A stretch of 64,000 bases of DNA from an uncultured Muribaculaceae bacterium (GTDB taxonomy: Bacteria > Bacillota_I > Bacilli_A > RF39 > UBA660). The notes under the pieces were generated by a model that saw only the letters and a list, made by a program, of their open reading frames with translations, had not been told where the DNA came from and did no database searches. Numbering within the stretch: the stretch's first letter is position 1; each line of letters begins with the position of its first letter. The translations under genes were made by a program, and so were the position numbers. Positions 10,091-62,027 of the stretch are shown in pieces. Where the stretch lies: the NCBI GenBank assembly GCA_964513345.1, contig CAZELY010000001.1:73980-137979 (forward strand), in the 5' to 3' direction.

Positions 10091-10873
10091 ATGGAAAGAT
10101 TGAACGAAATATTAAGAGAATTAGGAATTTCAAAAGTAAAACTTGCCAAATGCCTAGGTGTTTCTAGACAAATGATCTATAATTATTTAGAATTAGATGA
10201 TTTAAATAAATGGCCAAAGGATAAAAAAGTTATTTTATTAAATATTTTAGGAATTAAATCTGCCGAAGATTTAGACGATATTAAGGTTGATACTGACTAT
10301 ATTATGGATGTTGAAACCAGAATCAATAGTTTATTTGAAAACACGGCAAAAAGTGAAGTTGGCGATTCAAATGTTATTTTTGATGGCTTAGGCGAAAAAC
10401 AGAAAGAATTATTACATAATATAATTGATGAATTAAAAGAGCGCTTAAGCGATGAAAAAGACGAAGTAGCTTATCATTCAACTTTATATTTATATCACTA
10501 TTTACAAACAATGGAGAATTCTCGTGAATTAAATTATATACTAGCATATATGTCTAAAGCCGCAGGATTTACTAAACCATATGAGTTTGTATATGATGAA
10601 AATGAACAATTTATATTCGAAAGTATTTTATTTTCAGCAATGACACTATATCATAGTGGTACCGCTTCTAAGACAAAAATAGCGGCTACTCACAAACGTT
10701 TTGTCGAAAAGATTGAAGCTAAACTAGAAGACAAAATGAGTCGTACATTAGAGATAAATGCAGCAAAAGTACAAGCACTAAAAGAATTAGGTTATACTGA
10801 AATAACTACTGAAAATGCTTCACAAGTATTAGAAAAAATTGTTGAGATTCAATCACGTAAAGTCAATAATTAA
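10091..10873 (+). CDS. XRE-family HTH transcriptional regulator with a C-terminal helical domain (RNPP/Rgg-like architecture possible)
   Basis: N-terminal HTH_3-like LRELGISKVKLAKCLGVSRQMIYNY, followed by about 190 aa of helical, non-enzymatic sequence. Confidence 0.55.
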   Translation: MERLNEILRELGISKVKLAKCLGVSRQMIYNYLELDDLNKWPKDKKVILLNILGIKSAEDLDDIKVDTDYIMDVETRINSLFENTAKSEVGDSNVIFDGLGEKQKELLHNIIDELKERLSDEKDEVAYHSTLYLYHYLQTMENSRELNYILAYMSKAAGFTKPYEFVYDENEQFIFESILFSAMTLYHSGTASKTKIAATHKRFVEKIEAKLEDKMSRTLEINAAKVQALKELGYTEITTENASQVLEKIVEIQSRKVNN

Positions 10874-10874
10874 T

Positions 10875-10902
10875 TATTCCTATAATATATATTATGTTAA
10901 CT
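10875..10902. other. dif: dif-like XerC/XerD chromosome dimer resolution site
   Basis: TATTCCTATAATATATATTATGTTAACT matches the Firmicutes/B. subtilis dif consensus ACTTCCTAGAATATATATTATGTAAACT at 24 of 28 positions, with both 11-bp arms and a 6-bp centre. It lies next to the xerD-like gene and at the switch in gene orientation. Confidence 0.75.
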
Positions 10903-11111
10903 TGTTAATTTATTAAAATATGAGTATGCATTATTTTATATATGCTTACTCTTTTTTTAATTACTACTTCCCCCTTTTTGTTTTGATTTATGAAAGATAA
11001 AAAGTTATAAAATTTATTCATTATAAAAAAATTTAAATTTCAAATTTTAATTTTTTAATATTTATTTATATTCTTTAAGTGTGATATCCATTAATAATTT
11101 ATTTTTGATTG

Positions 11112-11136
11112 AGATGGACAATTATCCATCTTTTTG
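11112..11136 (+). terminator. Rho-independent terminator (+ strand)
   Basis: AGATGGA caatta TCCATCT followed by TTTTTG. Confidence 0.6.
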
Positions 11137-11420
11137 TTTCTCGATTAAAATTAGAGTCCCCTACTATTTCTTATTCTCCTTCATATTAAAGTAGGGGGTT
11201 AATATTTTAAATTTTTACTTCATTGTGTGATGATACTACGATGCCATTTAAAGATAGGAAACTGCTAATTGATTTTTTATACATTTTACTTAATATACAA
11301 TTGATAATTTTAAATTAAACTTCCCTATTTGTTTTAAAAAAAGAGGAATGTAATTATTTTTGATTTTAACCCGTTTTTAGAAGACTTTTTATTTAATAGT
11401 ATTATTTACTGATAACAGGC

Positions 11421-11462
11421 AAAAACAACTAAAAAAGGGCCACTTTAGCGTATATGTGCCCT
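11421..11462 (-). terminator. Rho-independent terminator of xerD
   Basis: On the - strand, GGGCAC...GTGGCCC forms an imperfect GC-rich hairpin followed by TTTTTTAGTTGTTTTT. It overlaps the stop codon. Confidence 0.55.
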
Positions 11463-12348
11463 ATTTACCGTGTGGGTGAGACTCTTTATAATTTTCCTTT
11501 AATTTTTCATTAGTTATATGGGTATATATTTGAGTTGAAGATATATCTGAATGTCCAAGTAATTCTTGAATACTTCTTAAATCAGCTCCATGTTTTAACA
11601 AGTGCGTTGCAAATGAATGTCTCAAGGTGTGTGGTGAAAAATCAGTTTTAATGTTTTGTTCTTTAGCAATATTTTTCAAAATTTTAAAAAAAGCTTGCCT
11701 TGTCATTTTATCTCCCCTACTGCTTAAAAAAAGATAATCGCTTATTTTACTTTTAAGCAGCATTGGTCTATAAATTTTTATATATTCTTTGATGGCGCTT
11801 ACTGCATATTCACCTAGGGGTAAAATTCTTTCTTTTGAACCTTTTCCAAAAATTCTTAAAGTCTCTAAATTTAGATCAACATCCGTCAATTTTAAATTAA
11901 TTAATTCACTTATCCTAAGTCCACTACTATACATCAACTCAATCATTGCCTTGTTACGATAATCGTATTTATTTTTAACATTAAAATTTAATAGTTTTAA
12001 TATTTCCTCTTCCGATAAAACTTTAGGTAAATCTTTTTCTATTTTTGGTGTGACTATATTATCAAGTGGAGCTTTACTAATATATTTTTCAAGTGTCAAA
12101 AATTTATAAAAGCTTCTCAAAGTGCTTATATTTCTCGAAACACTTTTCGCAGTCATTTTTTTATTTAAATCTTTCACATATTCTTTCAAATCATGATTAT
12201 CAATATTTTTAAGTTTTTTCTTGTTTTCAAAATACTCTTTGAATTTTAGTAGATCATTACTATATGAACTTATGGTGTTAGAACTATACTTCTTTTCAAG
12301 GAGTAAATAACTTTTAAATTCTTCAAGTTTAGTACTATAATCATCCAT
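11461..12348 (-). CDS. xerD: Tyrosine site-specific recombinase XerD (XerC/XerD family)
   Basis: 295 aa with the C-terminal catalytic box HTLRHSFATHLL...GADLRSIQELLGHSDISSTQIYTH. Adjacent to the dif-like site. Confidence 0.8.
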   Translation of the reverse strand: MDDYSTKLEEFKSYLLLEKKYSSNTISSYSNDLLKFKEYFENKKKLKNIDNHDLKEYVKDLNKKMTAKSVSRNISTLRSFYKFLTLEKYISKAPLDNIVTPKIEKDLPKVLSEEEILKLLNFNVKNKYDYRNKAMIELMYSSGLRISELINLKLTDVDLNLETLRIFGKGSKERILPLGEYAVSAIKEYIKIYRPMLLKSKISDYLFLSSRGDKMTRQAFFKILKNIAKEQNIKTDFSPHTLRHSFATHLLKHGADLRSIQELLGHSDISSTQIYTHITNEKLKENYKESHPHGK

Positions 12349-12424
12349 ACTATCACCTACTTAAATTTTAACAAATTTATCAAAAAAAAACAATTTTTTG
12401 GTATAATGATAATGAGGTGATATT

Positions 12425-13630
12425 GTGCAGCCGCTAGCAGATCAAATAAGACCAAACAAACTAGATGATATTATTGGACAGGAACACTTAGTAGGCAAAA
12501 ATAAAATTATCAGAAATTTAGTTGACAACAAAAAAATCTTTTCGATGATTTTATTTGGTCCTCCAGGGACAGGTAAAACAACTCTAGCTTACACTTTAGT
12601 TGCTGAATTGGATTTAGAATGTGGATTTTTAAATGCCGTAATTAATAGTAAAAAAGATTTTGACGAAATGATATATAAAGCTAAAAGCTGTGATAATTTT
12701 GTTTTGATTATGGATGAAATACATCGTTTGAATAAAGATAAACAAGACTTACTGCTGCCATATTTAGAAAATGGAGTTATTACTTTAATAGGTATGACCA
12801 CGGCAAATCCATATCATTCAATAAATCCAGCAATTAGGAGTAGATGCCAATTATTTGAATTAAAACTTCTTTCGAAAAAAAATATTATTGATGCCCTACA
12901 AAAGTCATTAACTTATTTAGAAAAAATCAAAATTGATGACGAATCACTTGAATACATTGCTTCCCTATCTTCTGGTGATTTAAGGTACGCATATAATTTA
13001 TTAGAAATTGCTTATTATAGTTCAAAAAATCATAAAATAAATTTAGAAATGTTGAAACAAATAAGTGACAAACCAAGCTTGTACATTGATAAAAATGATG
13101 ATGGCTATTATGATGTTATAAGTGCGTTACAAAAATCAATAAGAGGAAGCGACGTTGATGCTGCCCTACACTATTTGGCAAGATTAATAGTTGCCGAAGA
13201 TTTAGATATCATATTCAGAAGATTAAGCGTTATTGCTTACGAAGACATTGGTCTTGCTAATCCATCTATTGGTCCAAGATTGAATGCTTGTATAAATGCT
13301 TGTGAAAGATTAGGTCTACCGGAAGCTAGGATCCCTTTGGGAGAAATCGTAATTGAAATGGCACTTTCACCAAAAAGCAATAGTGCTTATTTGGCAATTG
13401 ATAAAGCAATTGGTGATGTTGAAATGGGAAGTGTTGGTAAAGTTCCAAATCATATTAAAACCAATTCAAAAGATTATAAGTATCCCCATAACTATAAAGG
13501 AAGTTTTGTTAAACAACAATATTTACCTGATGAACTTATTAATAAAAAGTATTATTATCCAAAAGAATCAAGTCCATATGAAAAGAAAGTTAAAGAAATA
13601 TATGAAAAAATAGAAACCTTAAAAAATTAG
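12425..13630 (+). CDS. rarA: Replication-associated recombination protein A (RarA/MgsA AAA+ ATPase)
   Basis: GQEHLVG...ILFGPPGTGKTTLA Walker A, IMDEIHRLNK, and a C-terminal MgsA helical domain. Confidence 0.9.
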   Translation: MQPLADQIRPNKLDDIIGQEHLVGKNKIIRNLVDNKKIFSMILFGPPGTGKTTLAYTLVAELDLECGFLNAVINSKKDFDEMIYKAKSCDNFVLIMDEIHRLNKDKQDLLLPYLENGVITLIGMTTANPYHSINPAIRSRCQLFELKLLSKKNIIDALQKSLTYLEKIKIDDESLEYIASLSSGDLRYAYNLLEIAYYSSKNHKINLEMLKQISDKPSLYIDKNDDGYYDVISALQKSIRGSDVDAALHYLARLIVAEDLDIIFRRLSVIAYEDIGLANPSIGPRLNACINACERLGLPEARIPLGEIVIEMALSPKSNSAYLAIDKAIGDVEMGSVGKVPNHIKTNSKDYKYPHNYKGSFVKQQYLPDELINKKYYYPKESSPYEKKVKEIYEKIETLKN

Positions 13631-14600: not shown

Positions 14601-15026
14601 TTGAAAAATATGCTAGAATATGTCGCGTTTTATGAAAAGGAGCGAATTTTTATGGAATGCTATAAAATTGAAGATTTAAAAATTGCTAAATATGAATACC
14701 AACGATTTTATAAAATTAGTACTTTAAAACGTTTGGTTATTACTAATGAACGTTATGGGGTTTTAGTTAAAACTGATGTTGACTATTATTATGATTTAAT
14801 AAATAATTGGCCGGTATGGGAAAAAGATATTATCGGCACTCCTCGTTCTTTTATTGCAACCAATGAATTATTGTCGAGAAGTCAAATTAAGTATATTTTC
14901 GACGTTTTAATCAGTGGTTTTAATTTTGAAAACAATAATGGGCCAACAAATGTGTCTGAGACAAGTATTGTGAGTGGAGCCGTTAATAAGATTAAAAGCA
15001 TTGGTTCAAAATTTAGAAAAAAATAA
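14601..15026 (+). CDS. Hypothetical protein
   Basis: 141 aa ORF with coding-like codon usage. No motif recognised. Confidence 0.4.
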   Translation: MKNMLEYVAFYEKERIFMECYKIEDLKIAKYEYQRFYKISTLKRLVITNERYGVLVKTDVDYYYDLINNWPVWEKDIIGTPRSFIATNELLSRSQIKYIFDVLISGFNFENNNGPTNVSETSIVSGAVNKIKSIGSKFRKK

Positions 15027-21339: not shown

Positions 21340-22101
21340 CTAATTCAATATATTTGCGATAACATCAAAATCAAATTTAGATAAAATAATGATGATAGCT
21401 GCTAGGGCCAAAAAAGGTCCAAATGGTATTATGTGGTCACTATTCTTTTTGATGGTTATAAGTGATATTGGTAATGCAATTATAGAACCAATAAAAATTG
21501 AAAGTAGTGCCATAGGATAACCTAGTACAAAACCAATAATTCCCATTAATTTAATGTCACCACCACCCATTGATTCTCTTTTGAATAGAAAATCGCCGAG
21601 TTTTTTTAATCCCCACATTGTAAAAAATGCTAACACGGCTGCCAAGACATGTTTAAGAAAAACAATTGGGCCATAAATAACCATAACTTCCAGAATTAAT
21701 AATATACCAAACCCAAGTAGTACACTATCATTTATTATCATATAATTATAATCACTTATCATGATTATTATTAACATCGAAGCAAAAGTCAGAGGAATAA
21801 TTATGTCTGTACTTAATCCAAAAATAATATAACATAGTAAAAATACTATTCCAGTGAACATTTCAAAAATTGGATAAAACAATGAAATTTTTTGCTTACA
21901 ATTTCGACATTTACCTTTTTGAAATATATAAGAAAACACAGGAATCAATTCTAGCGTTCCTAGTTTGTGATTACAATTAGGACAGTGGCTTGCTGGAAAA
22001 ACAATTGATTCATTTTTCGGTAAGCGATATCCAACAACATTATAAAAGGATCCAAAAATGGTTCCAATTATAAAACTAAGTATTACGTAAAATATTTCCA
22101 T
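21340..22101 (-). CDS. Prepilin peptidase (A24 family, PilD/ComC/TadV-like)
   Basis: N-terminal CPNCNHKL...CRNCKQKI zinc-binding pairs and GGGDIKLMG. GGGGG RBS. Confidence 0.85.
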   Translation of the reverse strand: MEIFYVILSFIIGTIFGSFYNVVGYRLPKNESIVFPASHCPNCNHKLGTLELIPVFSYIFQKGKCRNCKQKISLFYPIFEMFTGIVFLLCYIIFGLSTDIIIPLTFASMLIIIMISDYNYMIINDSVLLGFGILLILEVMVIYGPIVFLKHVLAAVLAFFTMWGLKKLGDFLFKRESMGGGDIKLMGIIGFVLGYPMALLSIFIGSIIALPISLITIKKNSDHIIPFGPFLALAAIIIILSKFDFDVIANILN

Positions 22102-22109
22102 ATAACCCC

Positions 22110-23642
22110 CTACTGTTGAATTGCACTATACATGTTAAACATCGGAACAACAATCGCTAAAACAATTACTCCTACCATTACTGTTAACATGATAATCATC
22201 GCAGGTTCGACAAAAGATTTAATTCTCGCTACTGAGTTTTTATGTAAGTCTTGATAGTATTGCGAAACTTTGTCCATCATTTCAGCAAGCTGTCCTGTTT
22301 CTTCACCGGTAACTATCATTTCATATGCCGGAATCGGAAAAGCCCATTTGTCCTTAAATGCAGTTGAAATCTTCCCGCCTTTAGCGACATTTAAAACTGC
22401 TTCATCAATCATTTCTTTATAAATTTCGTTATTAGTAATTTTATGTAAAATATCCATACTATCGGTAATAAATACATTGTTTGAAAGTAATGAAGCAAAT
22501 GTTTTTGTAAACGTAGTTACCTCATTATAAATTATTACGTTTTTAAAAACTGGAAGATGCATACCTATTAATTGTATTGAACGACGAAATCCTCTTACAT
22601 TACGATATAAATATGAAAGAAACAAAATTAATACTATGACGCCAATTCCAACGATAATAACATAATTATTTAAAAATTCACTTAAGCCTAGAACCATTTT
22701 TGTGATCCATGGTAAAGTTGCATTGTCCATGCTATTATAAATATCGACAAATTTTGGCACGACAAACAACATTATAAATAATCCAACGCCGATAGCAATA
22801 ACAAATACGATTGTTGGATACATCATTGCTGAAATCATAGCTTTTCTTGTTGATTCCATTTCGGTATAATATTCTTCCATATCATCAAGTGTTTCCGGAA
22901 GTTCGCCTGTCATTTCAGCTGTTTGAACCATGTTTATAAACAACCTAGGAAAAGCTTTCCCTTGCTTATCCAAAGCTTCACTAAAGCTTCGTCCAATTGA
23001 TAAATCATACTTTATGGCTTTTAATATTTTTTGGTGCGTTGGATTTTTAAACTGTTTAGTTAGTTTATTTACTGCATCAGCAAGTGGTATACCAACCTTT
23101 AGATATGTAGATAATTGTGCAATCATGAAAATTAAATCTTTATTTTTAATTCGACTTTGATTTAACTCTTTCGCACTATGAAACATTTGAATATATTTTG
23201 AAGTGCGGATATCAAATACCTTATAACCTTCACTAAGCAAATATGAGTTTACTTCAACAACCGAAAAAGCGTCAAAGTATCCTATTAATGGTTTGCCATT
23301 CTCATCGGCCACCTCATATCTATAAGTAACCTTCTTGTCGTGTTTTTCGGCCTCTTCACCGTTGAAATTAACTTTGAATTCAGGACGTTCCAAGAATTTT
23401 TGCTCTTTTGCTGACAATACTTTTTCATCAGCTTTTTCTTTTATTTTTTTAGAAGTATTAATAACAGTATTACCTATAGCTTCAACTTTACTAGAGTTTT
23501 GTTTAGGAGTTTTGCTTGCTACTTTATTCTTTTTAGGAAAAATGCTTAGTAAAATACTAGGCATATATTTTAATCCAAGTAAAAAATAGTGGAAAAATCT
23601 ATATACATAAATACATGGCAACAATAACGTTTTTGTACTCAT
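22110..23642 (-). CDS. Type II secretion system F-family platform protein (PilC/ComGB-like) with a roughly 110-aa N-terminal extension
   Basis: GspF domains start near TYRYEVADENGKPLIGYF. A strong GGAGGG RBS supports the ATG at 23642, giving a hydrophobic, K-rich N-terminal extension. Confidence 0.75.
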   Translation of the reverse strand: MSTKTLLLPCIYVYRFFHYFLLGLKYMPSILLSIFPKKNKVASKTPKQNSSKVEAIGNTVINTSKKIKEKADEKVLSAKEQKFLERPEFKVNFNGEEAEKHDKKVTYRYEVADENGKPLIGYFDAFSVVEVNSYLLSEGYKVFDIRTSKYIQMFHSAKELNQSRIKNKDLIFMIAQLSTYLKVGIPLADAVNKLTKQFKNPTHQKILKAIKYDLSIGRSFSEALDKQGKAFPRLFINMVQTAEMTGELPETLDDMEEYYTEMESTRKAMISAMMYPTIVFVIAIGVGLFIMLFVVPKFVDIYNSMDNATLPWITKMVLGLSEFLNNYVIIVGIGVIVLILFLSYLYRNVRGFRRSIQLIGMHLPVFKNVIIYNEVTTFTKTFASLLSNNVFITDSMDILHKITNNEIYKEMIDEAVLNVAKGGKISTAFKDKWAFPIPAYEMIVTGEETGQLAEMMDKVSQYYQDLHKNSVARIKSFVEPAMIIMLTVMVGVIVLAIVVPMFNMYSAIQQ

Positions 23643-23749
23643 CCTTTTCCCTCCTATTCTTTTTACTATATATAATTATATCACATTTTATCAGTAAACA
23701 AAACATTTTTTCAAAAAAACATATAATAATATTAGAGAGGAGTTTTCAA

Positions 23750-24067
23750 ATGAACTATTATTACCCCTATTATATGGCAATTCCACCGCGAACATTTAGA
23801 CCAACATTTTTCAGTTCACTTAAAAATAGTTTAAATAACATTAACTTTAATGGTATTTTAAATGGGACGCAAAGGACACTTAATATTATTAATCAGACTA
23901 TTCCGCTTGTGAAACAAATATCGCCAGTTATAAAAAACACTAAAACAATGTTTCGAGTTATGAGTGAGTTTCGTAAAGCAAATCATAACGAAAATGAACC
24001 AAATAACATAGAAAATTTAAAAGCAGAAATTGATAATGAAAATTACGGACCACAATTTTTTCTATAG
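23750..24067 (+). CDS. Hypothetical small protein (Tyr/Pro-rich N-terminus MNYYYPYYMAIPPR)
   Basis: AGAGAGGAG RBS lies 8 nt upstream, and its own terminator hairpin is at 24075-24095. A + strand gene nested between - strand genes. Confidence 0.45.
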   Translation: MNYYYPYYMAIPPRTFRPTFFSSLKNSLNNINFNGILNGTQRTLNIINQTIPLVKQISPVIKNTKTMFRVMSEFRKANHNENEPNNIENLKAEIDNENYGPQFFL

Positions 24068-28991: not shown

Positions 28992-31052
28992 TTATGGCGT
29001 GTATTTTTCTACTTTCATTTTACCATTTTTGATATTAAACACAATACTTCCCTCTTCATCTGTTCTAAATATTTTTGAATTTCTTAAATTATTTAATACT
29101 TCTTTGTTTGGATGACCATAACGATTTTTCTTTCCAACACTAATTATTGAATATTTCGGATTAATCTCATCTATAAACTCTTTACTGCTACTTGTCTTTG
29201 AACCATGATGCCCCACTTTTAACACATCTATATCAGGTAAATTATATTTCTCTAATATTTCTTTTTCGGTAGTAACAGATGCATCTCCCATAAATAGAAA
29301 TTTATAACTATTTATGTCTGTATAAATAACGTTACTATTATCATTTTCATTATCGTATTCTTTTGTTTGTAAAAAATGTAATTTGTTGTTATCAACTTTT
29401 AATTCTTTGATACATGAAGAATGTTTAATTTTCTCTTTGTCTAATACCTTAATTAATTCTTTTTCTAACGTATTATATGGTCCACAATTAAATATTACTT
29501 TTTCTACTTTAAAATTATTAACTAAATTAATAGCTTCTCCCATATGATCAAAGTCGCCATGGGTCAAAATTAGTTCGGTAATTTTGTTAATGCCAATTGA
29601 TTTTAAATATGGAATAGTTTTGTTTTCAACTATTTTTGCTCCCATCATCTTACCACCAGTATCAATTAATATATTGTGTTTTGAGTTTGATAGTAATGTA
29701 CTATCACCTTGTGAGACATCTAAAAAACTAATCATTGTATTTTGACTAATAAAATTTATATTATGATGTATTATTAAACACATTAGTAGTAATATGAATC
29801 GTGAATATTTATGTTTAAAAATACCATTTATCGTTAAAATAATTACTAAATAATATAAAATTATCACGAAAAAACTAACATGTTTCAATTGAATTGTAAA
29901 TATCTTTATGTGACTTATTACTAACGAAAGGTTTTCTAAAATATTAATTAAAATACATAAAATATTATCTAGGGGTTTAATGAAAACTGTTATTAATGAA
30001 AGTGGAAACACTATAATAGATACAAACGGTACAAAAATAATATTAATAAGTGGACTTAAAAGGTTAATTTCAAAGTAGCTATTTGTTAAAACTGGAATGC
30101 TTACTAGAAACGCTATTAGTGATACTAGAAAAACGCTTTTAAAATACCCTTTTATTTTTTTCAAATGATCACTATACATCATCAAGAAAAACGTTATAAC
30201 AAATGAAAAAACAAAACCATTATTAAAAATTATAAAAGGGTTTAATAATAAATAAATACTAAAAATTAATATCAGAAAATAAATGCTTTCTACTTTTAAA
30301 TTTATAATTTTTTTGATCGTAAGGCATGTAAAAAGTAATACAGCCCTATTAACGGAAGGAGTAAAATTAACTAAAAACATATATATAAATAAAATAAGAA
30401 TTGTTATTAAATAGTTAAGTTTTTTCCGTTTTGAAATAATATTTAATGTATATAGTAATAGACCAGAAATCAGAGTAATATGCATACCTGAGATAGCTAA
30501 CAGATGACTGACACCATTTAACCGATAACTCTTTAAAATATTTTCATCTAATTCTTTTGAATTACCTAATATAAAAGTCATTAAATACTCTTTCGTTTTA
30601 TATTTTTTTATGCGCTCAAGAAGCCTATTTTTAAATTTGTAAAATGGACTAATCTTAGCATTTTGAATGGTAATAGTATTGGCATTCATTACGTGATAAA
30701 TATTTTGACTATATAAAAATTTTCGGTAATTAAATAAATTTGGTATCGTTGAATTACTTGCCTTTTCTATTTCACCAGCTACTTTTATTTTTTGCCCAAG
30801 TAAGCATTTAAAATCTTTATTGTAAGAAATTAATATTTTTTCTTTTCCTCGCATCGTAATTTTAGTGTTGTAATCGGTTTGCTGGCAATTTTCGATTATA
30901 CCAGTGATTGTTGCATTTCCTTCGTGAAATATGCTTTTAGGCACCGTTTTAACCATGAAAAAAGTGTATATAACACTTATTATTAATAAAATTACTATTG
31001 ATACATTAAACGCTGATGTAATCTTTAATTTTTTCAAATAATTGATCTCCAA
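28992..31052 (-). CDS. comEC: DNA internalization competence protein ComEC/Rec2 with a C-terminal metallo-beta-lactamase domain
   Basis: Competence domain GVSHLLAISGMHITLISGLL, a polytopic membrane region, and C-terminal LILTHGDFDHMG. Confidence 0.85.
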   Translation of the reverse strand: MEINYLKKLKITSAFNVSIVILLIISVIYTFFMVKTVPKSIFHEGNATITGIIENCQQTDYNTKITMRGKEKILISYNKDFKCLLGQKIKVAGEIEKASNSTIPNLFNYRKFLYSQNIYHVMNANTITIQNAKISPFYKFKNRLLERIKKYKTKEYLMTFILGNSKELDENILKSYRLNGVSHLLAISGMHITLISGLLLYTLNIISKRKKLNYLITILILFIYMFLVNFTPSVNRAVLLFTCLTIKKIINLKVESIYFLILIFSIYLLLNPFIIFNNGFVFSFVITFFLMMYSDHLKKIKGYFKSVFLVSLIAFLVSIPVLTNSYFEINLLSPLINIIFVPFVSIIVFPLSLITVFIKPLDNILCILINILENLSLVISHIKIFTIQLKHVSFFVIILYYLVIILTINGIFKHKYSRFILLLMCLIIHHNINFISQNTMISFLDVSQGDSTLLSNSKHNILIDTGGKMMGAKIVENKTIPYLKSIGINKITELILTHGDFDHMGEAINLVNNFKVEKVIFNCGPYNTLEKELIKVLDKEKIKHSSCIKELKVDNNKLHFLQTKEYDNENDNSNVIYTDINSYKFLFMGDASVTTEKEILEKYNLPDIDVLKVGHHGSKTSSSKEFIDEINPKYSIISVGKKNRYGHPNKEVLNNLRNSKIFRTDEEGSIVFNIKNGKMKVEKYTP

Positions 31053-34237: not shown

Positions 34238-35362
34238 ATGAAAAATAAAAAAATTATACTTATTGTCGTGGCAATAATATTAATTCTAGGGGTTTCAGTA
34301 TTTTTCTTCATTAAATCTAAAGAAGTTAAAATCACCTTTAAAAAAGCCAACAATATTGAAATCAATTCAAAAATTTATAATACCGATCTGATAAAAAGTA
34401 TAAAAAATGGCAAATTGCAAACAAAAAAAGAAATAGTAAACACCTCTAAACTTGGTAGTCACAAAATAAAATATATAATTAAAAACTACTTTAAGAAAAA
34501 TAAAGAATATTTTTACACCATAACTGTTGTTGATACTGAAAAGCCAACAATCAAATTTGATAAACAAATAGAAACTACTATAGGTGTTGAAGCGGATTTG
34601 CTCAAAAACGTGAAAGCCGAAGATAATTCCAAGGAAGAAATTAAGGTTACTGTTGATGGTGAATATGATTTTAAAAAGACAGGGACCTATAAATTATATT
34701 ATATAGCAAAAGATTCCTCTAAAAACGAGGCTAAAGAAGAATTTACACTAGTTGTTAAAGAAAAACCTAAAGACACGACAATTATCACAAATCCCGACAA
34801 AACTTTTACGACGACCAAAGGGTTCAAGGGTTATACTAAAAATGGACTTACTTATATCGCTGGATATTTAGTCGCCAATAAAACATATTCCCTACCCTCA
34901 ACATATAACCCAGGATTAAATAGTGAAGTTCAAAGCAAAGCTAATGTAATGTTTAATGATGCAAAAAAAGAAGGCCTAAATATTTACATTTCAAGTGGTT
35001 TCAGGTCTTATAATACACAAAAAAATCTTTATAACAACTATGTGGCTAGGGATGGTCAAAATGCCGCTGATACGTATTCAGCAAGGCCTGGACATTCTGA
35101 ACACCAAACGGGTCTGGCATTTGACGTTAATCAGATAAATAGTTCTTTTGATAATACTGCTGAAGCTAAATGGCTCGCTAGTAACTGTTATAAATATGGT
35201 TTTATTCTAAGATATCCTAAGGGAAAAGAAAACGAAACTGGTTATATTTATGAGTCATGGCACTTTCGATATGTAGGAACTGATTTAGCAAATAAATTAT
35301 ATAATAATGGAAATTGGATAACAATGGAAACGTATTTTGGCATTACAAGTAAATATAATTAA
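34238..35362 (+). CDS. M15B D-alanyl-D-alanine carboxypeptidase (VanY-like) with an N-terminal TM and Ig-like/DUF5011-like domains
   Basis: SGFRSYNTQ ... SEHQTGLAFD ... YGFILRYPKGKENETGYIYESWHFRYVG. Confidence 0.8.
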   Translation: MKNKKIILIVVAIILILGVSVFFFIKSKEVKITFKKANNIEINSKIYNTDLIKSIKNGKLQTKKEIVNTSKLGSHKIKYIIKNYFKKNKEYFYTITVVDTEKPTIKFDKQIETTIGVEADLLKNVKAEDNSKEEIKVTVDGEYDFKKTGTYKLYYIAKDSSKNEAKEEFTLVVKEKPKDTTIITNPDKTFTTTKGFKGYTKNGLTYIAGYLVANKTYSLPSTYNPGLNSEVQSKANVMFNDAKKEGLNIYISSGFRSYNTQKNLYNNYVARDGQNAADTYSARPGHSEHQTGLAFDVNQINSSFDNTAEAKWLASNCYKYGFILRYPKGKENETGYIYESWHFRYVGTDLANKLYNNGNWITMETYFGITSKYN

Positions 35363-35395
35363 AAAGACTTACTTCGTGTAAGTCTTTTGTTTTCC
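35363..35395. terminator. Bidirectional terminator
   Basis: AAGACTTAC ttcgt GTAAGTCTT TTGTTTT. Confidence 0.6.
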
Positions 35396-35740
35396 CTTAA
35401 AAATATTTGTATCAAGTTTAACACCTTGGGTTTCAAAACCACGATATATGTGTTCTAATGACCCTGGATTCTTTTTCCATAAATATCCGTCATCAGTGCA
35501 TTCTAGTTCATAATAATATGGTTTAGTTTCATCAGCGTGAGCCACATAATGCGTTGTGTCTTTATCACATACAGTAACCCTAACTACATCGTGCATACGA
35601 CAAAATAGCCCCAAATATTCACATTTTACTAATTTATCAACTTCTATTTGGTTAGAGTATAAATAATCAACGTATTCTTTTGTTAATAAAGTTTTCTTTT
35701 CTCCGGCAAAATATATAGTTGTAAATTCCGTATTATCCAT
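35369..35740 (-). CDS. Hypothetical protein
   Basis: 123 aa. GGAGG RBS before the ATG at 35740. Confidence 0.4.
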   Translation of the reverse strand: MDNTEFTTIYFAGEKKTLLTKEYVDYLYSNQIEVDKLVKCEYLGLFCRMHDVVRVTVCDKDTTHYVAHADETKPYYYELECTDDGYLWKKNPGSLEHIYRGFETQGVKLDTNIFKGKQKTYTK

Positions 35741-35796
35741 TTGTTTTCCTCCCTTGCTTCTTTAATTTTACCAATTTATTATAATTTGTCAACAAT

Positions 35797-35825
35797 TTGA
35801 CTTTTATTGCCCCGTAATATATAAT
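35797..35825 (+). promoter_or_regulatory. Sigma-A promoter upstream of def, with an overlapping palindrome
   Basis: TTGACT, a 17-nt spacer, then TATAAT. The inverted repeat GTCAAcaatTTGAC overlaps the -35 element. Confidence 0.55.
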
Positions 35826-35920
35826 ACCGCGTGCATATGTTAATGTGTGTAAAGGAAAGAATTTTATATAAAATAAATACTTAAAAGTATGATAAAATAA
35901 TATTATGTGGAAGTGATAAA

Positions 35921-36469
35921 ATGTTTAAAGAATTAAAGATTTTAGATGAAAAAAACAAAACACTTCGTCAAATTTCCAAGGAAGTAGAACTTCCGTTATC
36001 AAAAGAAGACAAAGAAACAATTAAAGCAATAATTAAACATCTGACATATAGTCAAATTCCCGAAAAATCTGAAAAGTATAATTTACGTCCCGGAATGGGT
36101 TTAGCATTCCCACAACTCGGACAGCTTAAAAGAATAATTGTTATCGTCTTCGAATATGAAGAAGGCAAATTTGAAAATTATGTGTTTATAAATCCAAAAA
36201 TTGTTAGTCATTCAGAGGAAATGGTTGCATTAGATACTGGCGAAGGTTGCTTAAGTGTAAATCGCGAAGTTGAGGGACATGTTCCTAGATTTGCTAGAGT
36301 TACAATTAATGGTTATGATGAAGATGGCAATAAAATTTCCATTAGAGCGCGTGAAGAACTGGCGGTTGCCTTTCAACATGAAATCGATCATTTAAATGGA
36401 ATATTATTTTTCGATAAAATCAACAAAAACAAACCGTTTTTTTCAGAAAACGAGATTCGTTTAATTTAG
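35921..36469 (+). CDS. def: Peptide deformylase
   Basis: Motifs GMGLAFPQLG, EGCLSV and HEIDHLNG. Confidence 0.9.
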   Translation: MFKELKILDEKNKTLRQISKEVELPLSKEDKETIKAIIKHLTYSQIPEKSEKYNLRPGMGLAFPQLGQLKRIIVIVFEYEEGKFENYVFINPKIVSHSEEMVALDTGEGCLSVNREVEGHVPRFARVTINGYDEDGNKISIRAREELAVAFQHEIDHLNGILFFDKINKNKPFFSENEIRLI

Positions 36470-36478
36470 GAGGCTTAA

Positions 36479-38197
36479 ATGAAAACAAAATATAAATATT
36501 TTCTTTTAGTTATTATAACGATTGTGGCTTCAATTTTAATATATAACTTTATTGAGGAAAACACATCAGTAAAAACAAAAAAAGATGTTTTGATTTTGCA
36601 AAAGGAAATTGAGAAAACAATTACTGAAGATATGGATTATACAATCGATGATCCAAAAGTAATTTTAAATCCATACAAAGTCTCACCTTTAACTGCGTTA
36701 GTGGTTTTTAAAACAAATGATTTAGCTTCTGCGGTTGTTACTATTAAAGGAAAAGACAACGATGAAGATATTACAAATACTTTCATACCTAGTAAAGAAC
36801 ATTTAATTACTATTTACGGACTTTACCCTGACTATGAAAACACCGTAATTATAAATGTTTCTGGCGAAGAAAAGATACTTAAAATTCAAACCGATAAATT
36901 GCCTGAGAATATAAATGATGCGAAAGTAATCAATGAAGAAGAAGATTTTTACTTTACAACATCGATTAATGGATACCCGATTGCTTATGATAAAAATGGT
37001 AATGTTCGCTGGTATTTAACAAAAAAATATAGCTGGGATTTTACAAGATTAAGCAACGGTTACTTACTTTTAGGTAATTCCGATTTAATGAAAGAGCCTT
37101 ATTATTCATCTTCTCTCGTTGAAATGGATTTGCTTGGAAAAATCTATTATGAATATTATTTAGAAGGTGGATACCATCACGATGTTTATGAAAAAACTGA
37201 TGGTAACTTAATTGCTATTTCAAATGATTTTAATAGTTTAACGACTGAAGATTTAATTGTTGAACTTGATCGAAATACTGGAAATGTCATTAAAAAGTTT
37301 GATCTATCAAAACTATTTAAAAATAAAAAAGGAAATTGGATTTCACTAAACTCAATTGCTTATAATCAAGATACCAATTCAATTTTAGCCGTTGGGTCTA
37401 AAAAAGATATGATAGTAAATATTGATTACACAACTGGTGAGATTAACTGGTTAATCGCTGATAAAGATAATATTGATAAAAAATATCAAAAATATTTATT
37501 AAGTGGCGATGGTGAAATTGAATTTCCAATTAATCCAAATGCTTTAACATTAATAAGTGGTAATAAATTTGCTTATGTAAATAGTAAAGACAATGAAAAT
37601 CATTTAATTACTTATGATGTAAATACAACCGAAAGAACATTCATTGAAAAAGAAAACATTAATTTAGGCAAAAAAAGAAGCACTATTAACCTTGATTATA
37701 ATAATGGTGAATATATTGTAACTCAAGGAAATTTAATTAAAAAAGTACAAGATGATGAGGCCATAACAGTATTAGAGTTAAATAGTGATATATACAGCGC
37801 TAAAGCATCTAAAATATATGCCGGTGATATGTTGATACCTGGTCAAGGTCAAAGGCTTGGGACAACAGGTATTACCTCTACTGTTAAAGATAAAATGATT
37901 ATTTTTTATAAAAAAGATACTAAGATATTTAAAAAATATAATTTATCAATAACTTCCGACGCCACAAAATTAAAAATTAAGGGAACTTTTAACAAAAATG
38001 ACAAGGTTCAAATAGTTTTAGATAATGTTTTAAGTAAAAAAACATATGACGTTGATCTTAAAAACGGTGTTAAAGAAAATAATAAAGTAAAAACAGTAAC
38101 ATATATTAATAAACAAGGAATATATGGTAAATACTATATATTTATAAAAATTAATGGTAAAACTTATAAGTTATCGAAATACGCTATAATGAGTTAA
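36479..38197 (+). CDS. Arylsulfotransferase (ASST)-family beta-propeller protein, N-terminally anchored
   Basis: N-terminal TM, and GYHHDVYEKTDGNLIAIS resembling the ASST catalytic His region. Length 572 aa. Confidence 0.5.
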   Translation: MKTKYKYFLLVIITIVASILIYNFIEENTSVKTKKDVLILQKEIEKTITEDMDYTIDDPKVILNPYKVSPLTALVVFKTNDLASAVVTIKGKDNDEDITNTFIPSKEHLITIYGLYPDYENTVIINVSGEEKILKIQTDKLPENINDAKVINEEEDFYFTTSINGYPIAYDKNGNVRWYLTKKYSWDFTRLSNGYLLLGNSDLMKEPYYSSSLVEMDLLGKIYYEYYLEGGYHHDVYEKTDGNLIAISNDFNSLTTEDLIVELDRNTGNVIKKFDLSKLFKNKKGNWISLNSIAYNQDTNSILAVGSKKDMIVNIDYTTGEINWLIADKDNIDKKYQKYLLSGDGEIEFPINPNALTLISGNKFAYVNSKDNENHLITYDVNTTERTFIEKENINLGKKRSTINLDYNNGEYIVTQGNLIKKVQDDEAITVLELNSDIYSAKASKIYAGDMLIPGQGQRLGTTGITSTVKDKMIIFYKKDTKIFKKYNLSITSDATKLKIKGTFNKNDKVQIVLDNVLSKKTYDVDLKNGVKENNKVKTVTYINKQGIYGKYYIFIKINGKTYKLSKYAIMS

Positions 38198-44504: not shown

Positions 44505-45998
44505 TTATATCACCACCTTCATTACTCTTCTTACGACATATATGAAGATTAAATAATATACTAACATAATTCCTAATAAAATTCTACCTATACCAGTTGT
44601 GACAAATGGTAAGAAATATGATGGACTTATAATACTTATAAATAAAACAAATAAGAATGGAACTATAAATAATACATAAACTATTATTCTACTGCTGGCA
44701 GTTAAAGATTTTAATTCCAAACGAAGTGTCTTTTTGTTAAACATAGTTTTTTCGATAGAAGTAAATACTTCGACGATATTACCACCAGTTTTATTCAAAA
44801 TAGTAAGTGAAGCTGTTAAATAATTAACCTCATCTAATTTAACACGTTTGGCAAATCTTTTAAACACTGTATCAATTTCCAAACCATATGATAGTTCAAG
44901 ACTCATTTTAGAAAACTCTCTAGCCATTCTTCCATTCAATTCGTGGCTTACAATGTCAATTGCTTGGACGATACTACGGCCAGATTTAAACGCATTATTC
45001 ATAACAATAATCGCAGAAAGTAAATCATTTTCCAATTTTTTGCGATAGGTTTTAAATTTAATAAAATAAACAATATCTAAAAGGAAGAAACCAACAGTCA
45101 TTGGCAAAAATATTTCATATGGTGAAATTAACCTAAATTGAATTGCACGCGCAAAAATGCCAATTATTAAGAATAAAACTGCCATGATAATCTTGCTAAT
45201 AAATATTTGCATGCCATTTGTATGGATAAAACTAATTTCGGCATATTTCTCTAAATGTTTACTATATTTTTGCGCAAAAATTGATTTTGTGAATTTATCT
45301 TCTTGTTTTCTTAACATATTTTGATACCATGAAACAATACGATCACTTAAAGAAGGTTCTTTTGTTTTCACTGAAGAAAGTGTAAATGGATCGATACGGT
45401 TCATTAAATGCACTGATTTGACAAATCTTGTTATAAGAAGCGCTATACCGATAATTAAAACAAACGCTAGCAGTTGCATGCCATATAAAAAGTAGGCATT
45501 ATTGGTTACATTGACATTTAAATTTGCTTCTGCAATATTGCCAGCTTCATCACTGACCTTATAAGTGATTGTTTTTTCACCAAGTTGTTTTAAATTAACC
45601 TCATCGATATTAGATTGAATTTGATTAGTTAAATCTCCGCTGATAGTATCACTTGCAGTAACATAATTTGAAGGAAAATCTTCGTTTTGTCGAAGCGTCA
45701 AATTATTTTCTTTAAATTTTAAAACAGGGGCTTCTTTATCGATAACATATTCACCACTGTGAATTACATGTTCGCCCGTTGCGTCTTTCACTTTAACGTC
45801 AATTTTATAAACTCCTGTTTCATTTAAATTTATACGAACGTCATTAGCAGAATTAATGGTGGCTGTATAAAATTGTTCATCATCTTTAAAAACAATATAC
45901 GTATAAGATTTTGTGTTTTGGGCAGGTGAAAAAACAACAATTAAATCTTTATTTGTTGGCTTTTCAGTATTCAAAATGTTGAAGTTTCCACCTTCCAT
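44505..45998 (-). CDS. TadB-like platform protein (T2SS-F domain) fused to an N-terminal Ig-like/DUF5011-like domain
   Basis: Residues 1-165 are soluble and Ig-like (TITYKVSDEAGNIAEANLNVNV). The first TM is followed by RFVKSVHLMNR, which predicts N-out topology. The C-terminal 300 aa form a GspF/TadB-like domain. Confidence 0.65.
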   Translation of the reverse strand: MEGGNFNILNTEKPTNKDLIVVFSPAQNTKSYTYIVFKDDEQFYTATINSANDVRINLNETGVYKIDVKVKDATGEHVIHSGEYVIDKEAPVLKFKENNLTLRQNEDFPSNYVTASDTISGDLTNQIQSNIDEVNLKQLGEKTITYKVSDEAGNIAEANLNVNVTNNAYFLYGMQLLAFVLIIGIALLITRFVKSVHLMNRIDPFTLSSVKTKEPSLSDRIVSWYQNMLRKQEDKFTKSIFAQKYSKHLEKYAEISFIHTNGMQIFISKIIMAVLFLIIGIFARAIQFRLISPYEIFLPMTVGFFLLDIVYFIKFKTYRKKLENDLLSAIIVMNNAFKSGRSIVQAIDIVSHELNGRMAREFSKMSLELSYGLEIDTVFKRFAKRVKLDEVNYLTASLTILNKTGGNIVEVFTSIEKTMFNKKTLRLELKSLTASSRIIVYVLFIVPFLFVLFISIISPSYFLPFVTTGIGRILLGIMLVYYLIFIYVVRRVMKVVI

Positions 45999-46007
45999 AT
46001 ACTCCTC

Positions 46008-47330
46008 CTATTTTTTAAAAATGTCGCTTAAATCATCTTGACCACGAGTGGTTATTTTATTATAAACGTGTGGGATTTTGTTATATAACAAGAATTCCCC
46101 TTTAACTTCGCCATTTGGCAAAACGCCAGTTTGTCTAAATTCAAAAATTGGATTTTGGATGATCTCGCCATCCTTTATCCCTATAATCTCATTAATACTT
46201 GATACCCTTCTTCGACCATCGGAAAATCTTTGGACACCGACAACAATATCGATAGCGTTTTCAATATATTCACGAATGGCTGTAACCGGTATTTCAATTC
46301 CGTTCATTAACACCATCGTCTCTAATCGATCCAAAGCATCTTCCGGCCCATTAGCGTGCATGGTAGTCATACTACCATCGTGTCCAGTATTCATGGCCTG
46401 TAACATATCAAATGCTTCCTTACCACGAACTTCACCTACAATAATACGATCAGGACGCATTCTTAAGGAATTAATTACTAAGTCTCTTATAGTAACTTGT
46501 CCTGAGCCTTCGTAATTAGTTGTACGCGTTTCAAGTGAAATTACGTGCTCTTGTTTAAGTTTTAATTCGGCAGCATCTTCAATTGTAATAATACGATCGT
46601 CAGGATCACAAAATGAAGATAAAACGTTTAAAAGTGTTGTTTTTCCGGAACCAGTACCACCGACAACTATAATATTTAGTTTAGCGTGTACGCAAGCTTC
46701 TAAAAATCTTGCCATATAAGGTGTTAGCGTTCCGGTTCGTAAGTAATCATCAATATTGGCAAGCTCGTGTTTAAACTTACGAATCGTTAAAACCGGTCCT
46801 TTAATTGAAAGCGGTGGTAACACAGCATTCAAACGAGAACCATCATCTAATCTTGCGTCGACCATTGGATGGGCTACGTCAATTGTTCTTCCCAAAGGTT
46901 GAACTAAACGCTGGATTACACGAACTATATGTTCATCATTAACAAAACTTACACTTTTATCCAAAATTAATTTACCATTTAATTCAATGTATATTTCATC
47001 TTTACCATTTACCATTATTTCCGTTATTTCACGATCTTTTAAAAGTTCGGTAAGTGGGCCATAACCGCTAATTTCATTATCGATTAAATTATAAATGTAG
47101 TTTCGCTCGTTAGTTGACAAATCATATCCTTTGGTTGTTTGATCAATTTGTAATTTAACAAAATCATCCATTGACTCATGCTCTTGAATATTATTATCGA
47201 TTAAATTTTGGATGATTTCATTTCTTAATTGATCCAGAAGTTCTTTATTCGGAAAGGCTTCATAGTCGCTTATTTCTTCACGAATAGTTTCTTCTTCATG
47301 AACATCAAATTCATCAATAAATTTTTTCAT
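46008..47330 (-). CDS. CpaF/TadA-family secretion ATPase
   Basis: Walker A IIVVGGTGSGKTTLLN, a VirB11-like core (RPDRIIVGEVRG, His box), and a length of 440 aa. Confidence 0.85.
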   Translation of the reverse strand: MKKFIDEFDVHEEETIREEISDYEAFPNKELLDQLRNEIIQNLIDNNIQEHESMDDFVKLQIDQTTKGYDLSTNERNYIYNLIDNEISGYGPLTELLKDREITEIMVNGKDEIYIELNGKLILDKSVSFVNDEHIVRVIQRLVQPLGRTIDVAHPMVDARLDDGSRLNAVLPPLSIKGPVLTIRKFKHELANIDDYLRTGTLTPYMARFLEACVHAKLNIIVVGGTGSGKTTLLNVLSSFCDPDDRIITIEDAAELKLKQEHVISLETRTTNYEGSGQVTIRDLVINSLRMRPDRIIVGEVRGKEAFDMLQAMNTGHDGSMTTMHANGPEDALDRLETMVLMNGIEIPVTAIREYIENAIDIVVGVQRFSDGRRRVSSINEIIGIKDGEIIQNPIFEFRQTGVLPNGEVKGEFLLYNKIPHVYNKITTRGQDDLSDIFKK

Positions 47331-58893: not shown

Positions 58894-59478
58894 ATGACAA
58901 AATTTATATTAGTAAGGCATGGTAAGCCAACATATGAAAAATTACTTTTAGAAGGCTATCGCGGAAAAGAATTTTCCTGGGCGCCGTTATCTGAAGAAGG
59001 CATTTTAGAAATAGAAAAACTAGCTCAAAATCAAATATTTGAAAATAGTGATTTATTAGTTTCATCTCCTTATACAAGAACTATGCAAACAGCAAGTATA
59101 ATTGGTCAAAAATATAATTTACAAATAAACCCAAATGTTTTATTGCACGAATGGATTCCCGATAATAGTAGTAACTACACCACAAAAGAAGAACTTGTTA
59201 AAAATGTAAGGCACGCTAGAAGTGAATTTGCTGCGCATAGTGATGATGAAAATTATATATATGATCCACGTTTTGAATCATTAATTCACGTTAGAAATAG
59301 AGCTTTAGAAGCATTAGAAGAATACTATGAACATGATAAAGTAATTGTCGTTGCCCATAGTGTATTAATTAGTATGTTATTCCCTTATCCTGTTAGATTA
59401 AAAACCGGTGAATATATTGAAACAACTAGTGAAGAATTAGATAAAAATTTTAAGCAAAAAACATTAAAAAAGATGTAA
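58894..59478 (+). CDS. Histidine phosphatase family protein (phosphoglycerate-mutase-like)
   Basis: LVRHGKPT (RHG motif) and a distal VVAHSVLI. Confidence 0.7.
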   Translation: MTKFILVRHGKPTYEKLLLEGYRGKEFSWAPLSEEGILEIEKLAQNQIFENSDLLVSSPYTRTMQTASIIGQKYNLQINPNVLLHEWIPDNSSNYTTKEELVKNVRHARSEFAAHSDDENYIYDPRFESLIHVRNRALEALEEYYEHDKVIVVAHSVLISMLFPYPVRLKTGEYIETTSEELDKNFKQKTLKKM

Positions 59479-60989: not shown

Positions 60990-62027
60990 ATGAAAAAAAT
61001 TTTGTTTTTACTCGTAATATTAACTATAATATCCGTTGCTATCTTTTTTATCAAAGATAGTAAAAAAGAAAGTGTTTTGTTACTAGAATTAAAAGGCAAA
61101 AAAATAATTACCATAAACATTAACGAAAAATTTTTTGACCCTGGTTTTAAGGCATTTGATACCATTGATGGTGATCTTACCAATAAAGTTAAAATAATTA
61201 ACAATATCAATACATCTAAAGAAGGAAATTATCAAATCACATATAAAGTTAAAAACTCAAAAGGAATTTCTAAAGAGGCATATCGCTTCGTTAAAGTAAA
61301 ATCGCTTCCATATTATAAAGAAGAATATAATAATCTCGATAATACTACTAGAAGTTGGTGGGCTACTAATAAGAAAAACAAAACGCGACCTACCGGTGGT
61401 GCCGATATAAATGAGCTAAAAAAATATAATGCTTATTATTTAGGACCAGACGAAAAAATAATCTACTTAACTTTTGATGAGGGCGCACTAGAAACTTATA
61501 TTAAAGAAATTGTCGAAGTTCTTGATAAAAACAACGCAAAAGCCACTTTCTTTTTATGCTATAAATATATGATAGAAAACAAAGAATTAATTAAAAATAT
61601 GGTATCGAGTGGCCACACTATTGGTAATCACACAGTAAATCATTTAAATATGCCTTCCCTGGCTACAAAAGAAAAATTTAATGAGTATTTATATGAAATA
61701 CAAAAGGTGGAGCAAGGTTATAAGGAAATCACTGGCAAAAACATGGAAAAAATATATCGTTCGCCTCGCGGTGAATGGAGCATACGTGACTTGCAAATTA
61801 TGAAAGATCTGGGTTATAAAACATACTTTTATAGTGCTTATTACTTAGATTTTGAAAATGATGTTAGCAAAGAATATGCCTTAAATGAACTTTTAATTAG
61901 ATATCATAATGGAGCCATATATTTACTGCATCCTAAAAACAAAGGAAATTTAGAGGCCTTAGACTCATTTATAAAAATTATGAAAAATAATGGTTACAAG
62001 TTTGATTTAGTAAAAAACATCCCTTAG
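60990..62027 (+). CDS. Polysaccharide deacetylase (NodB domain, PdaA-like) with an N-terminal TM and an Ig-like/DUF5011-like domain
   Basis: Ig-like block DGDLTNKVKI...GNYQITYKVKN, then NodB IIYLTFDEG...KATFFL...HTIGNHTVNH. Confidence 0.75.
   Translation: MKKILFLLVILTIISVAIFFIKDSKKESVLLLELKGKKIITININEKFFDPGFKAFDTIDGDLTNKVKIINNINTSKEGNYQITYKVKNSKGISKEAYRFVKVKSLPYYKEEYNNLDNTTRSWWATNKKNKTRPTGGADINELKKYNAYYLGPDEKIIYLTFDEGALETYIKEIVEVLDKNNAKATFFLCYKYMIENKELIKNMVSSGHTIGNHTVNHLNMPSLATKEKFNEYLYEIQKVEQGYKEITGKNMEKIYRSPRGEWSIRDLQIMKDLGYKTYFYSAYYLDFENDVSKEYALNELLIRYHNGAIYLLHPKNKGNLEALDSFIKIMKNNGYKFDLVKNIP

Follow-up and report, generated by a model that had tools for sequence, protein, structure and literature searches.

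Does the 28-bp sequence that directly follows a regulator gene in this DNA mark the place where the two replichores of the chromosome meet, and is it the site at which chromosome dimers are resolved? The stretch analyzed, referred to here as the window, is 64 kb (64,000 nucleotides) of a contig from an uncultured gut bacterium of the Bacilli, and all coordinates count from its first base. A first-pass annotation, made from the letters of the window, had read the 28-mer as a dif site. The analysis described below leads to the same reading: positions 10875-10902 are very probably the chromosome's dif site, the target of chromosome-dimer resolution, at the junction of the replichores. The site and its parts are:

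10875-10902, + strand: dif site, 28 bp, TATTCCTATAATATATATTATGTTAACT, unique in the 64-kb window, 24/28 identical to the dif site of Bacillus subtilis
10875-10885, + strand: left arm of dif (XerC/CodV-type), TATTCCTATAA
10886-10891, + strand: centre of dif, TATATA
10892-10902, + strand: right arm of dif (XerD/RipX-type), TTATGTTAACT

Likeness to experimentally confirmed dif sites, those of B. subtilis (ACTTCCTAGAATATATATTATGTAAACT) and Escherichia coli (GGTGCGCATAATGTATATTATGTTAAAT) (PMC3025954), is the most direct evidence. Recomputing the comparison to B. subtilis returns the annotated 24 identities in 28 positions, with the annotated arms of 11 bp around a 6-bp centre; the four mismatches fall at positions 1, 2, 9, and 24. 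Compared to E. coli dif there are seven mismatches (21/28 identical), while the right arm alone shares 10 of 11 positions with the E. coli XerD arm, TTATGTTAAAT, and equally many with the B. subtilis XerD arm. The sequence thus has the architecture of a dif site, two 11-bp arms in imperfect dyad symmetry about a 6-bp centre, as well as similarity to confirmed examples. A genome of roughly 28% G+C invites chance matches to any AT-rich motif, and the central 13 bases of the 28-mer are simple AT sequence. Yet the next best 28-mer in the window has eight mismatches to B. subtilis dif (20/28), and in 300 dinucleotide-preserving shuffles the best score was five mismatches, reached once, with four or fewer in 0/300. 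The match is therefore not a by-product of base composition. The window contains exactly one copy of the 28-mer, even with three mismatches allowed. Conservation of the site between species, where its flanks are not conserved (see below), likewise argues against coincidence, and the chance reading, vanishingly improbable, is effectively refuted.

The features that surround the site are:

10091-10873, + strand: protein of 260 amino acids with a helix-turn-helix (HTH) at its N-terminus only (HTH_7/HTH_3 hits below threshold, residues 2-40)
10912-10961, + strand: intrinsic terminator of the HTH gene, a hairpin (10922-10951, 20 nt past dif) and then a U-run (-12.7 kcal/mol, z = -4.1)
10903-11460, no strand: non-coding, AT-rich spacer of 558 bp between dif and xerD, with no second dif, phage remnant, or known RNA
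11111-11132, + strand: terminator-like hairpin within the spacer, of uncertain significance (z = -1.8)
11420-11466, - strand: probable xerD terminator, a GGGCC...GGCCC hairpin and then UUUUUU, overlapping the stop codon (-9.1 kcal/mol, z = -0.9, weak; read by eye)
11461-12348, - strand: xerD, tyrosine recombinase of 295 amino acids, likely partner of the right arm of dif (profile models, structure match)
12425-13630, + strand: rarA/mgsA, recombination-associated AAA+ ATPase, divergent from xerD (MgsA_C, AAA_assoc_2, and RuvB_N domains)

Both of the distances annotated earlier are borne out. The TAA stop codon of the HTH gene occupies 10871-10873, one base ahead of the site at 10875, and the 560 bp given for the distance to a xerD-like gene measures 558 bp. 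The recombinase gene scores 359 bits to the XerD model TIGR02225, an NCBIfam equivalog with a cut-off of 329.6. Its score to the XerC model (325.7) is just under the cut-off of 335.15, and the XerS model NF003462 gives 121.9 bits vs. a cut-off of 267. The closest solved structure is E. coli XerD itself (1a0p, E = 4e-63), and in the alignment to 1a0p the motifs that carry the catalytic Arg, Lys, His-x-x-Arg, His, and Tyr residues (GLRxSEL, GKGxKER, HxLRH, LLGHSD, and QIYTH) are identical. The gene is intact, and the genome thus encodes a cognate XerD for the site. A tblastn search of the 64-kb window detects no second tyrosine recombinase or XerC-type paralog.

A tyrosine recombinase gene adjoining a short imperfect palindrome is also what an integrated mobile element would display, with the 28-mer as its attachment site and the recombinase as its integrase. 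The protein, however, passes an equivalog model for XerD, and its neighbors are housekeeping genes (mnmA, rarA, holA, dnaG, smc, mutS). The gene order around the site persists in genomes with as little as 45% protein identity. Neither genes of phage or transfer type nor a second att-like repeat is present in the window. Such an origin is highly improbable, and we regard it as effectively excluded. The remaining identified genes of the window are likewise ordinary chromosomal ones, including comEC, a Mur ligase (MurC-like), and phosphoketolase.

The 260-aa HTH protein is a constant companion of the site. It has 4418 homologs, all about 260 aa in length, and is conserved about as well as MnmA. 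In the closest relatives the stop codon of its gene abuts dif, and in nearly all related loci that carry the gene it lies no more than about 1.6 kb away. Past the HTH region, the remaining 220 residues have no match in Pfam, NCBIfam, or PDB by phmmer and profile searches, and the AlphaFold model (pLDDT 56.7) is too poor for a fold search. The terminator of this gene, which corresponds to inverted repeat I11, is more stable than expected (0/200 shuffles equally stable), and comparable hairpins follow dif in the relatives L135 and L091. With that hairpin located 3' of dif, the site itself falls within the 3' untranslated region of the HTH gene.

The spacer, part of a non-coding stretch of 587 bp from the HTH gene to xerD, looks like weakly constrained non-coding DNA bearing the terminators of two convergent genes. 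The hairpin at 11111-11132 is the sole terminator-like site predicted in 10700-12500, and about 100 nt around it are weakly conserved (71%) in L019. DNA similarity to relatives is limited to 111 nt shared with L019 (71%) and to 17 identical nt in L124. A search of Rfam with the spacer returns a single sub-threshold chance hit and no known RNA family. No spacer ORF has homologs, and tblastx comparisons, both to the oriented loci bearing the core of the site and to the dif-xerD spacers of L117 and L124, find no coding remnants. Remnants of the ZIP transporter, ArsP_2, DNA_alkylation, and deaminase genes that occupy longer spacers in relatives are also absent from this one. A weak direct repeat containing ACTTCC (10955-10982 and 11308-11335) was considered as a dif-like sequence and rejected, having more than nine mismatches to dif.

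Some features elsewhere in the window may be recorded here. Two sets of type IV pilus/competence-like genes are present, at 21340-23642 (T2SSF, prepilin peptidase) and 44505-47330 (T2SSF, T2SSE), as well as ComEC at 28992-31052, all in a small-genome organism. At the left end of the window, positions 1-1056 (with a glycosyltransferase ORF at 182-847) are unrelated to positions 8945-10000 of L128, an otherwise identical conspecific scaffold (614/1056 positions differ), which suggests that a polysaccharide gene cluster varying between strains lies upstream of a SpoIIM-family (PF01944) gene.

Conservation across species separates the site from its surroundings. Its exact 26-nt core, TTCCTATAATATATATTATGTTAACT, is present as a single copy in each of at least 119 assemblies from other species: cultured Bacillaceae, many metagenome-assembled genomes of Bacilli, Izemoplasmatales, and Mollicutes, and some members of distant phyla. 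Across these loci, conservation drops to background directly outside the 28-mer. The first two positions are AC in 82 of 117 loci, so the TA of the window is a minority form. Metagenome scaffolds exist that are 99.98-100% identical to the window over their overlap. Three metagenome contigs each have a single copy of the full 28-mer, with the HTH gene upstream in two of the three. In L142, a diverged conspecific strain, all 28 positions are unchanged, against a divergence of 2.3% in the flanking genes and 4.35% in the spacer.

Three further species were found through the HTH protein and not through the site, and this sample is unbiased for that reason. Their sites read AAACATTATAA-TATATA-TTATGTTAACT, AAAACCGATAA-TATATA-TTATGTTAACT, and ACTTCCTATAA-TGTATA-TTATGTTAACT. 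What varies is the outer left arm; the inner ATAA of that arm and the whole right arm (11/11) are constant, and this is the known pattern of dif conservation (PMC5357621).

The order mnmA, HTH gene, dif, xerD (- strand), rarA (+ strand) is kept in dozens of related assemblies, down to approximately 45% protein identity. What lies between dif and xerD is less constant. The distance grows from 0.56 kb in the window to about 4 kb in relatives (L117, L124, L131, and L135 were compared), and the cargo includes a ZIP transporter, ArsP_2, a DNA-alkylation repair protein, a deaminase, ferritin, phosphoglucomutase, and a short-chain dehydrogenase; the terminus is a hot spot of gene-content change. In L027, L057, L090, L094, L100, L116, and L122, dif is inverted relative to its flanks within the same gene order (mnmA, HTH gene, xerD). 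Among Izemoplasmatales/Mollicutes loci, including L008, L015, L016, L044, L082, and L083, the Izemoplasmatales have rarA at a distance of 0.4-5 kb from this dif core, and the HTH gene is absent, so the linkage of rarA to dif extends more widely than the clade of the window. Seven contigs recorded as Muribaculaceae or Bacteroidaceae (L007, L037, L053, L056, L068, L070, and L121) nevertheless have a Bacilli-type HTH gene by dif (45-72% identical), mostly with mnmA; these are probably binning contaminants or mislabeled assemblies.

If the site is dif, genes and base composition should change polarity around it. The first-pass annotation had described a flip of gene orientation at exactly this point, and the count agrees: the 11 long ORFs to the left (to 10873) all read from the + strand, and of the 49 to the right, 41 lie on the - strand. 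The exceptions named at the time are present (12425-13630, which is rarA; 14601-15026; and the ORF near 23750, at 23615-24067), and further + strand genes lie at 34238-38197, 58894-59478, and 60990-62027. A conspecific scaffold extends the left side, with 20/20 called genes upstream of dif on the + strand, ten of them past the left end of the window.

GC skew tells a similar story with less precision. In bulk it is +0.147 to the left of dif and -0.121 to the right, and on the conspecific scaffold it stays positive across the 20 kb upstream. An inflection had been predicted at about 10.9 kb. A sign change does occur near dif, but as a broad feature and not a point: the sign, taken in 2-kb windows, switches over the interval from about 10 to 16 kb, and the cumulative curve peaks in a plateau with no sharp point at 10.9 kb. 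The bulk skew, moreover, largely restates gene orientation, because most of it comes from codon position 1, a coding-strand effect. Two measures are less confounded. The coding-strand skew at third codon positions (GC3 skew) is 0.022 for + strand genes on the left (those of the window pooled with nine + strand genes of the conspecific scaffold; the eleven from the window alone give 0.021), -0.010 for - strand genes on the right, and -0.108 for + strand genes on the right, modest differences by the Fisher test (p = 0.014 and 0.046). Intergenic skew is -0.163 on the right (p = 1.4e-7) and +0.098 on the left, where the sample is too small to test. Both agree with a switch of leading strand at dif. 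Among guide motifs for a DNA translocase, GAAGAAG, that of Lactococcus FtsK, occurs 29 times pointing toward dif and 4 times pointing away, a bias confounded with coding strand, and the G-rich guide motifs of E. coli (KOPS, GGGNAGGG, one occurrence) and B. subtilis are essentially absent from the window.

The same polarity is seen in other species. Of the core-bearing loci, 61 have 1.5 kb or more of flank on each side; in 44 of them skew goes from positive to negative across the site, read left to right, and in 3 it goes the other way (Wilcoxon p = 1e-10). The motif therefore marks terminus-type polarity across species. Judged locally by skew and orientation, dif sits where the replichores meet. 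The claim that replichores converge here is thus upheld by orientation, skew, cross-species polarity, and conserved gene order, and the convergence is placed to a region and not to a base. It can be argued that dif is real while the forks meet outside the window, the orientation switch marking the dif zone only. A published comparison does find termination to occur near dif, not at dif (PMC3025954), and the skew maximum here is broad. Against this, both orientation and skew switch within a few kb of the site, in the window as in relatives, and in Firmicutes the separation of predicted dif sites from the point of skew shift is no more than approximately 1-3% of the genome length (PMC3025954). 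For a genome of 1.5 Mb that is about 15-45 kb, a distance comparable to the window. Termination elsewhere is, on balance, quite unlikely, and the site is taken in what follows as dif at the replichore junction.

The neighborhood of dif had also been flagged as a place to look for integrative mobile elements exploiting Xer (IMEX), with the non-coding stretch beside the site singled out. For the window that expectation fails: its spacer contains no element and no second dif. No second site made of the centre and XerD arm (17 nt, two or fewer mismatches) is found in the 64-kb window, and tblastx comparison of the elements described below to the window finds nothing; no IMEX is present inside it. 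For relatives the expectation holds, in three cases with both junctions resolved:

L126, 10784-17074: insertion of 6264 bp exactly at the orthologous dif, compared to the empty sites of L124 and L125
L134, 8783-14870: insertion of 6.06 kb at the orthologous dif, compared to the empty sites of L135-L138
L091, 590-6950: element between two half-sites 6334 bp apart

The flanks of L124 and L125 are about 99.5% identical to those of L126, and L091 is a sister of the window organism (HTH protein 92% identical). The elements of L126 and L134 each encode a rolling-circle Rep protein (PF23343; also phrog_3419 in L126) and an Xre-type repressor, and that of L091 encodes a Rep homolog. The L126 element, scanned against PHROGs as well, has a weak Zot-like protein and a 60-aa virion protein. 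No recognizable integrase is found in any of the three. In gene content the inserted elements resemble filamentous phages (inovirus-like). Rep homologs also adjoin dif in L053, L089, and L017.

The junctions are informative about the manner of insertion. In all three relatives each direct repeat opens precisely where the left arm gives way to the centre and runs through the centre, the XerD arm, and a further 13-55 bp of host-like flank, in which L134 and L091 have the terminator as well; on the element side, the left arm bears no relation to dif. The two junctions of L126 differ in their centre, a variant (TATATC) at the left and that of the host (TATATA) at the right, an asymmetry that would fit a crossover at the point of cleavage next to the left arm. 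Taken together, these insertions suggest, if indirectly, that Xer recombination acts on the orthologous site in nature, and they are the best support available for this. Scans of viral contigs with the dif core of the window, the attachment site predicted for the L126 element, and the Rep protein of L091 gave no match. A literature search returned no report of filamentous-phage IMEXs in Firmicutes, which is no proof that none exists.

How the site would work can be proposed by analogy with the systems of B. subtilis and E. coli. Sister chromosomes would be joined into a dimer when the crossovers between them are odd in number, and a translocase of the FtsK/SpoIIIE type, located at the septum, would presumably bring the two copies of dif together. 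A XerC/CodV-type recombinase would bind the variable left arm, TATTCCTATAA, and the XerD encoded 558 bp away would bind the conserved right arm, TTATGTTAACT. Strands would then be exchanged in two ordered pairs, at the edges of the 6-bp TATATA centre, which would add one crossover and restore monomers. This scheme of dimer resolution by XerC/XerD (CodV/RipX) is the most likely one.

Its main rival is an arrangement in which XerD alone serves both arms, the gene and site forming a module like XerS/difSL or XerH/difH. The linkage of xerD to dif, 0.56-4 kb apart throughout the clade, is what makes this attractive, and it is unusual because xerD in bacteria generally tends toward the origin (PMC3025954). 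The genomes are small (approximately 1.3-1.5 Mb), the xerD product scores near the cut-off for XerC (325.7 vs. 335.15), and no other recombinase is found in the 64-kb window, although this last point says little because xerC is usually unlinked. The site itself speaks for two proteins: it is a canonical 28-bp dif of the XerCD type with clearly unequal arms, of which the left varies between species and the right is invariant, as expected if each is bound by a different protein. The XerS model, in addition, scores far under its cut-off (122 vs. 267 bits). Service by XerD alone is rather unlikely, and resolution by a XerC/XerD pair continues to be preferred.

In itself the dif site of the window is an instance of an ordinary, well-known kind of element, a routine example. 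Its practical value is that it anchors the replication terminus on a contig of an uncultured organism, and an anchored terminus helps to orient and order assembled genomes, to read strand biases, and to locate the coverage troughs used in estimating growth rates. The terminus cassette and the IMEX family of relatives are modest points of interest. The linkage of xerD to dif and the recurrent integrase-less, phage-like insertions in relatives offer a natural system for Xer and IMEX biology outside the Proteobacteria. A bolder reading, unlikely but worth stating, is that the cassette (mnmA, the 260-aa HTH protein, dif, xerD, and rarA) in these uncultured, small-genome gut Bacilli departs from the textbook, either by using XerD alone on both arms or by using the HTH protein as a terminus or Xer accessory factor, and that its site is exploited by a previously undescribed, inovirus-like family of IMEX, whose attachment site keeps just the centre, the XerD arm, and a copy of the host flank (with the terminator in two of three).

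Comparison to known systems places the site closest to B. subtilis dif with CodV (XerC) and RipX (XerD). Both are 28-bp, 11-6-11 sites in the terminus region of a Bacillota chromosome, and they share 24/28 positions, an identical TATATA centre, and 10 of 11 positions of the right arm. They differ at the outer left arm (TA in the window vs. AC) and at position 9 (T vs. G), and in the window xerD lies 558 bp from dif, contrary to the general bacterial tendency of this gene toward the origin (PMC3025954). With the E. coli system of dif, XerC/XerD, and FtsK, the window shares the XerD arm (TTATGTTAACT vs. TTATGTTAAAT, 10/11) and a recombinase in which all catalytic residues align; the left arm is unrelated (21/28 overall), and KOPS, GGGNAGGG, occurs just the once. 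XerS/difSL of streptococci and lactococci and XerH/difH of Helicobacter and Campylobacter resemble it in having a recombinase gene linked to the site clade-wide. The site of the window, however, is a canonical 28 bp and not a 31-bp difSL, and the recombinase is of XerD type, so it is not a module of the XerS/difSL kind; only the linkage of gene to site is shared.

The elements in L126, L134, and L091 compare in turn to the known IMEXs, namely CTXphi, VGJphi, and TLCphi of Vibrio and the gonococcal genetic island (GGI), in being integrase-less elements located at dif between dif-derived repeats. The GGI keeps the XerC arm and centre, and the attachment site of TLCphi matches dif on the XerC side and centre and diverges on the XerD side, whereas all three elements in relatives keep the centre and a perfect XerD arm. 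They differ from known IMEXs also in copying 13-55 bp of host flank and in having hosts that are Bacilli, not Proteobacteria.
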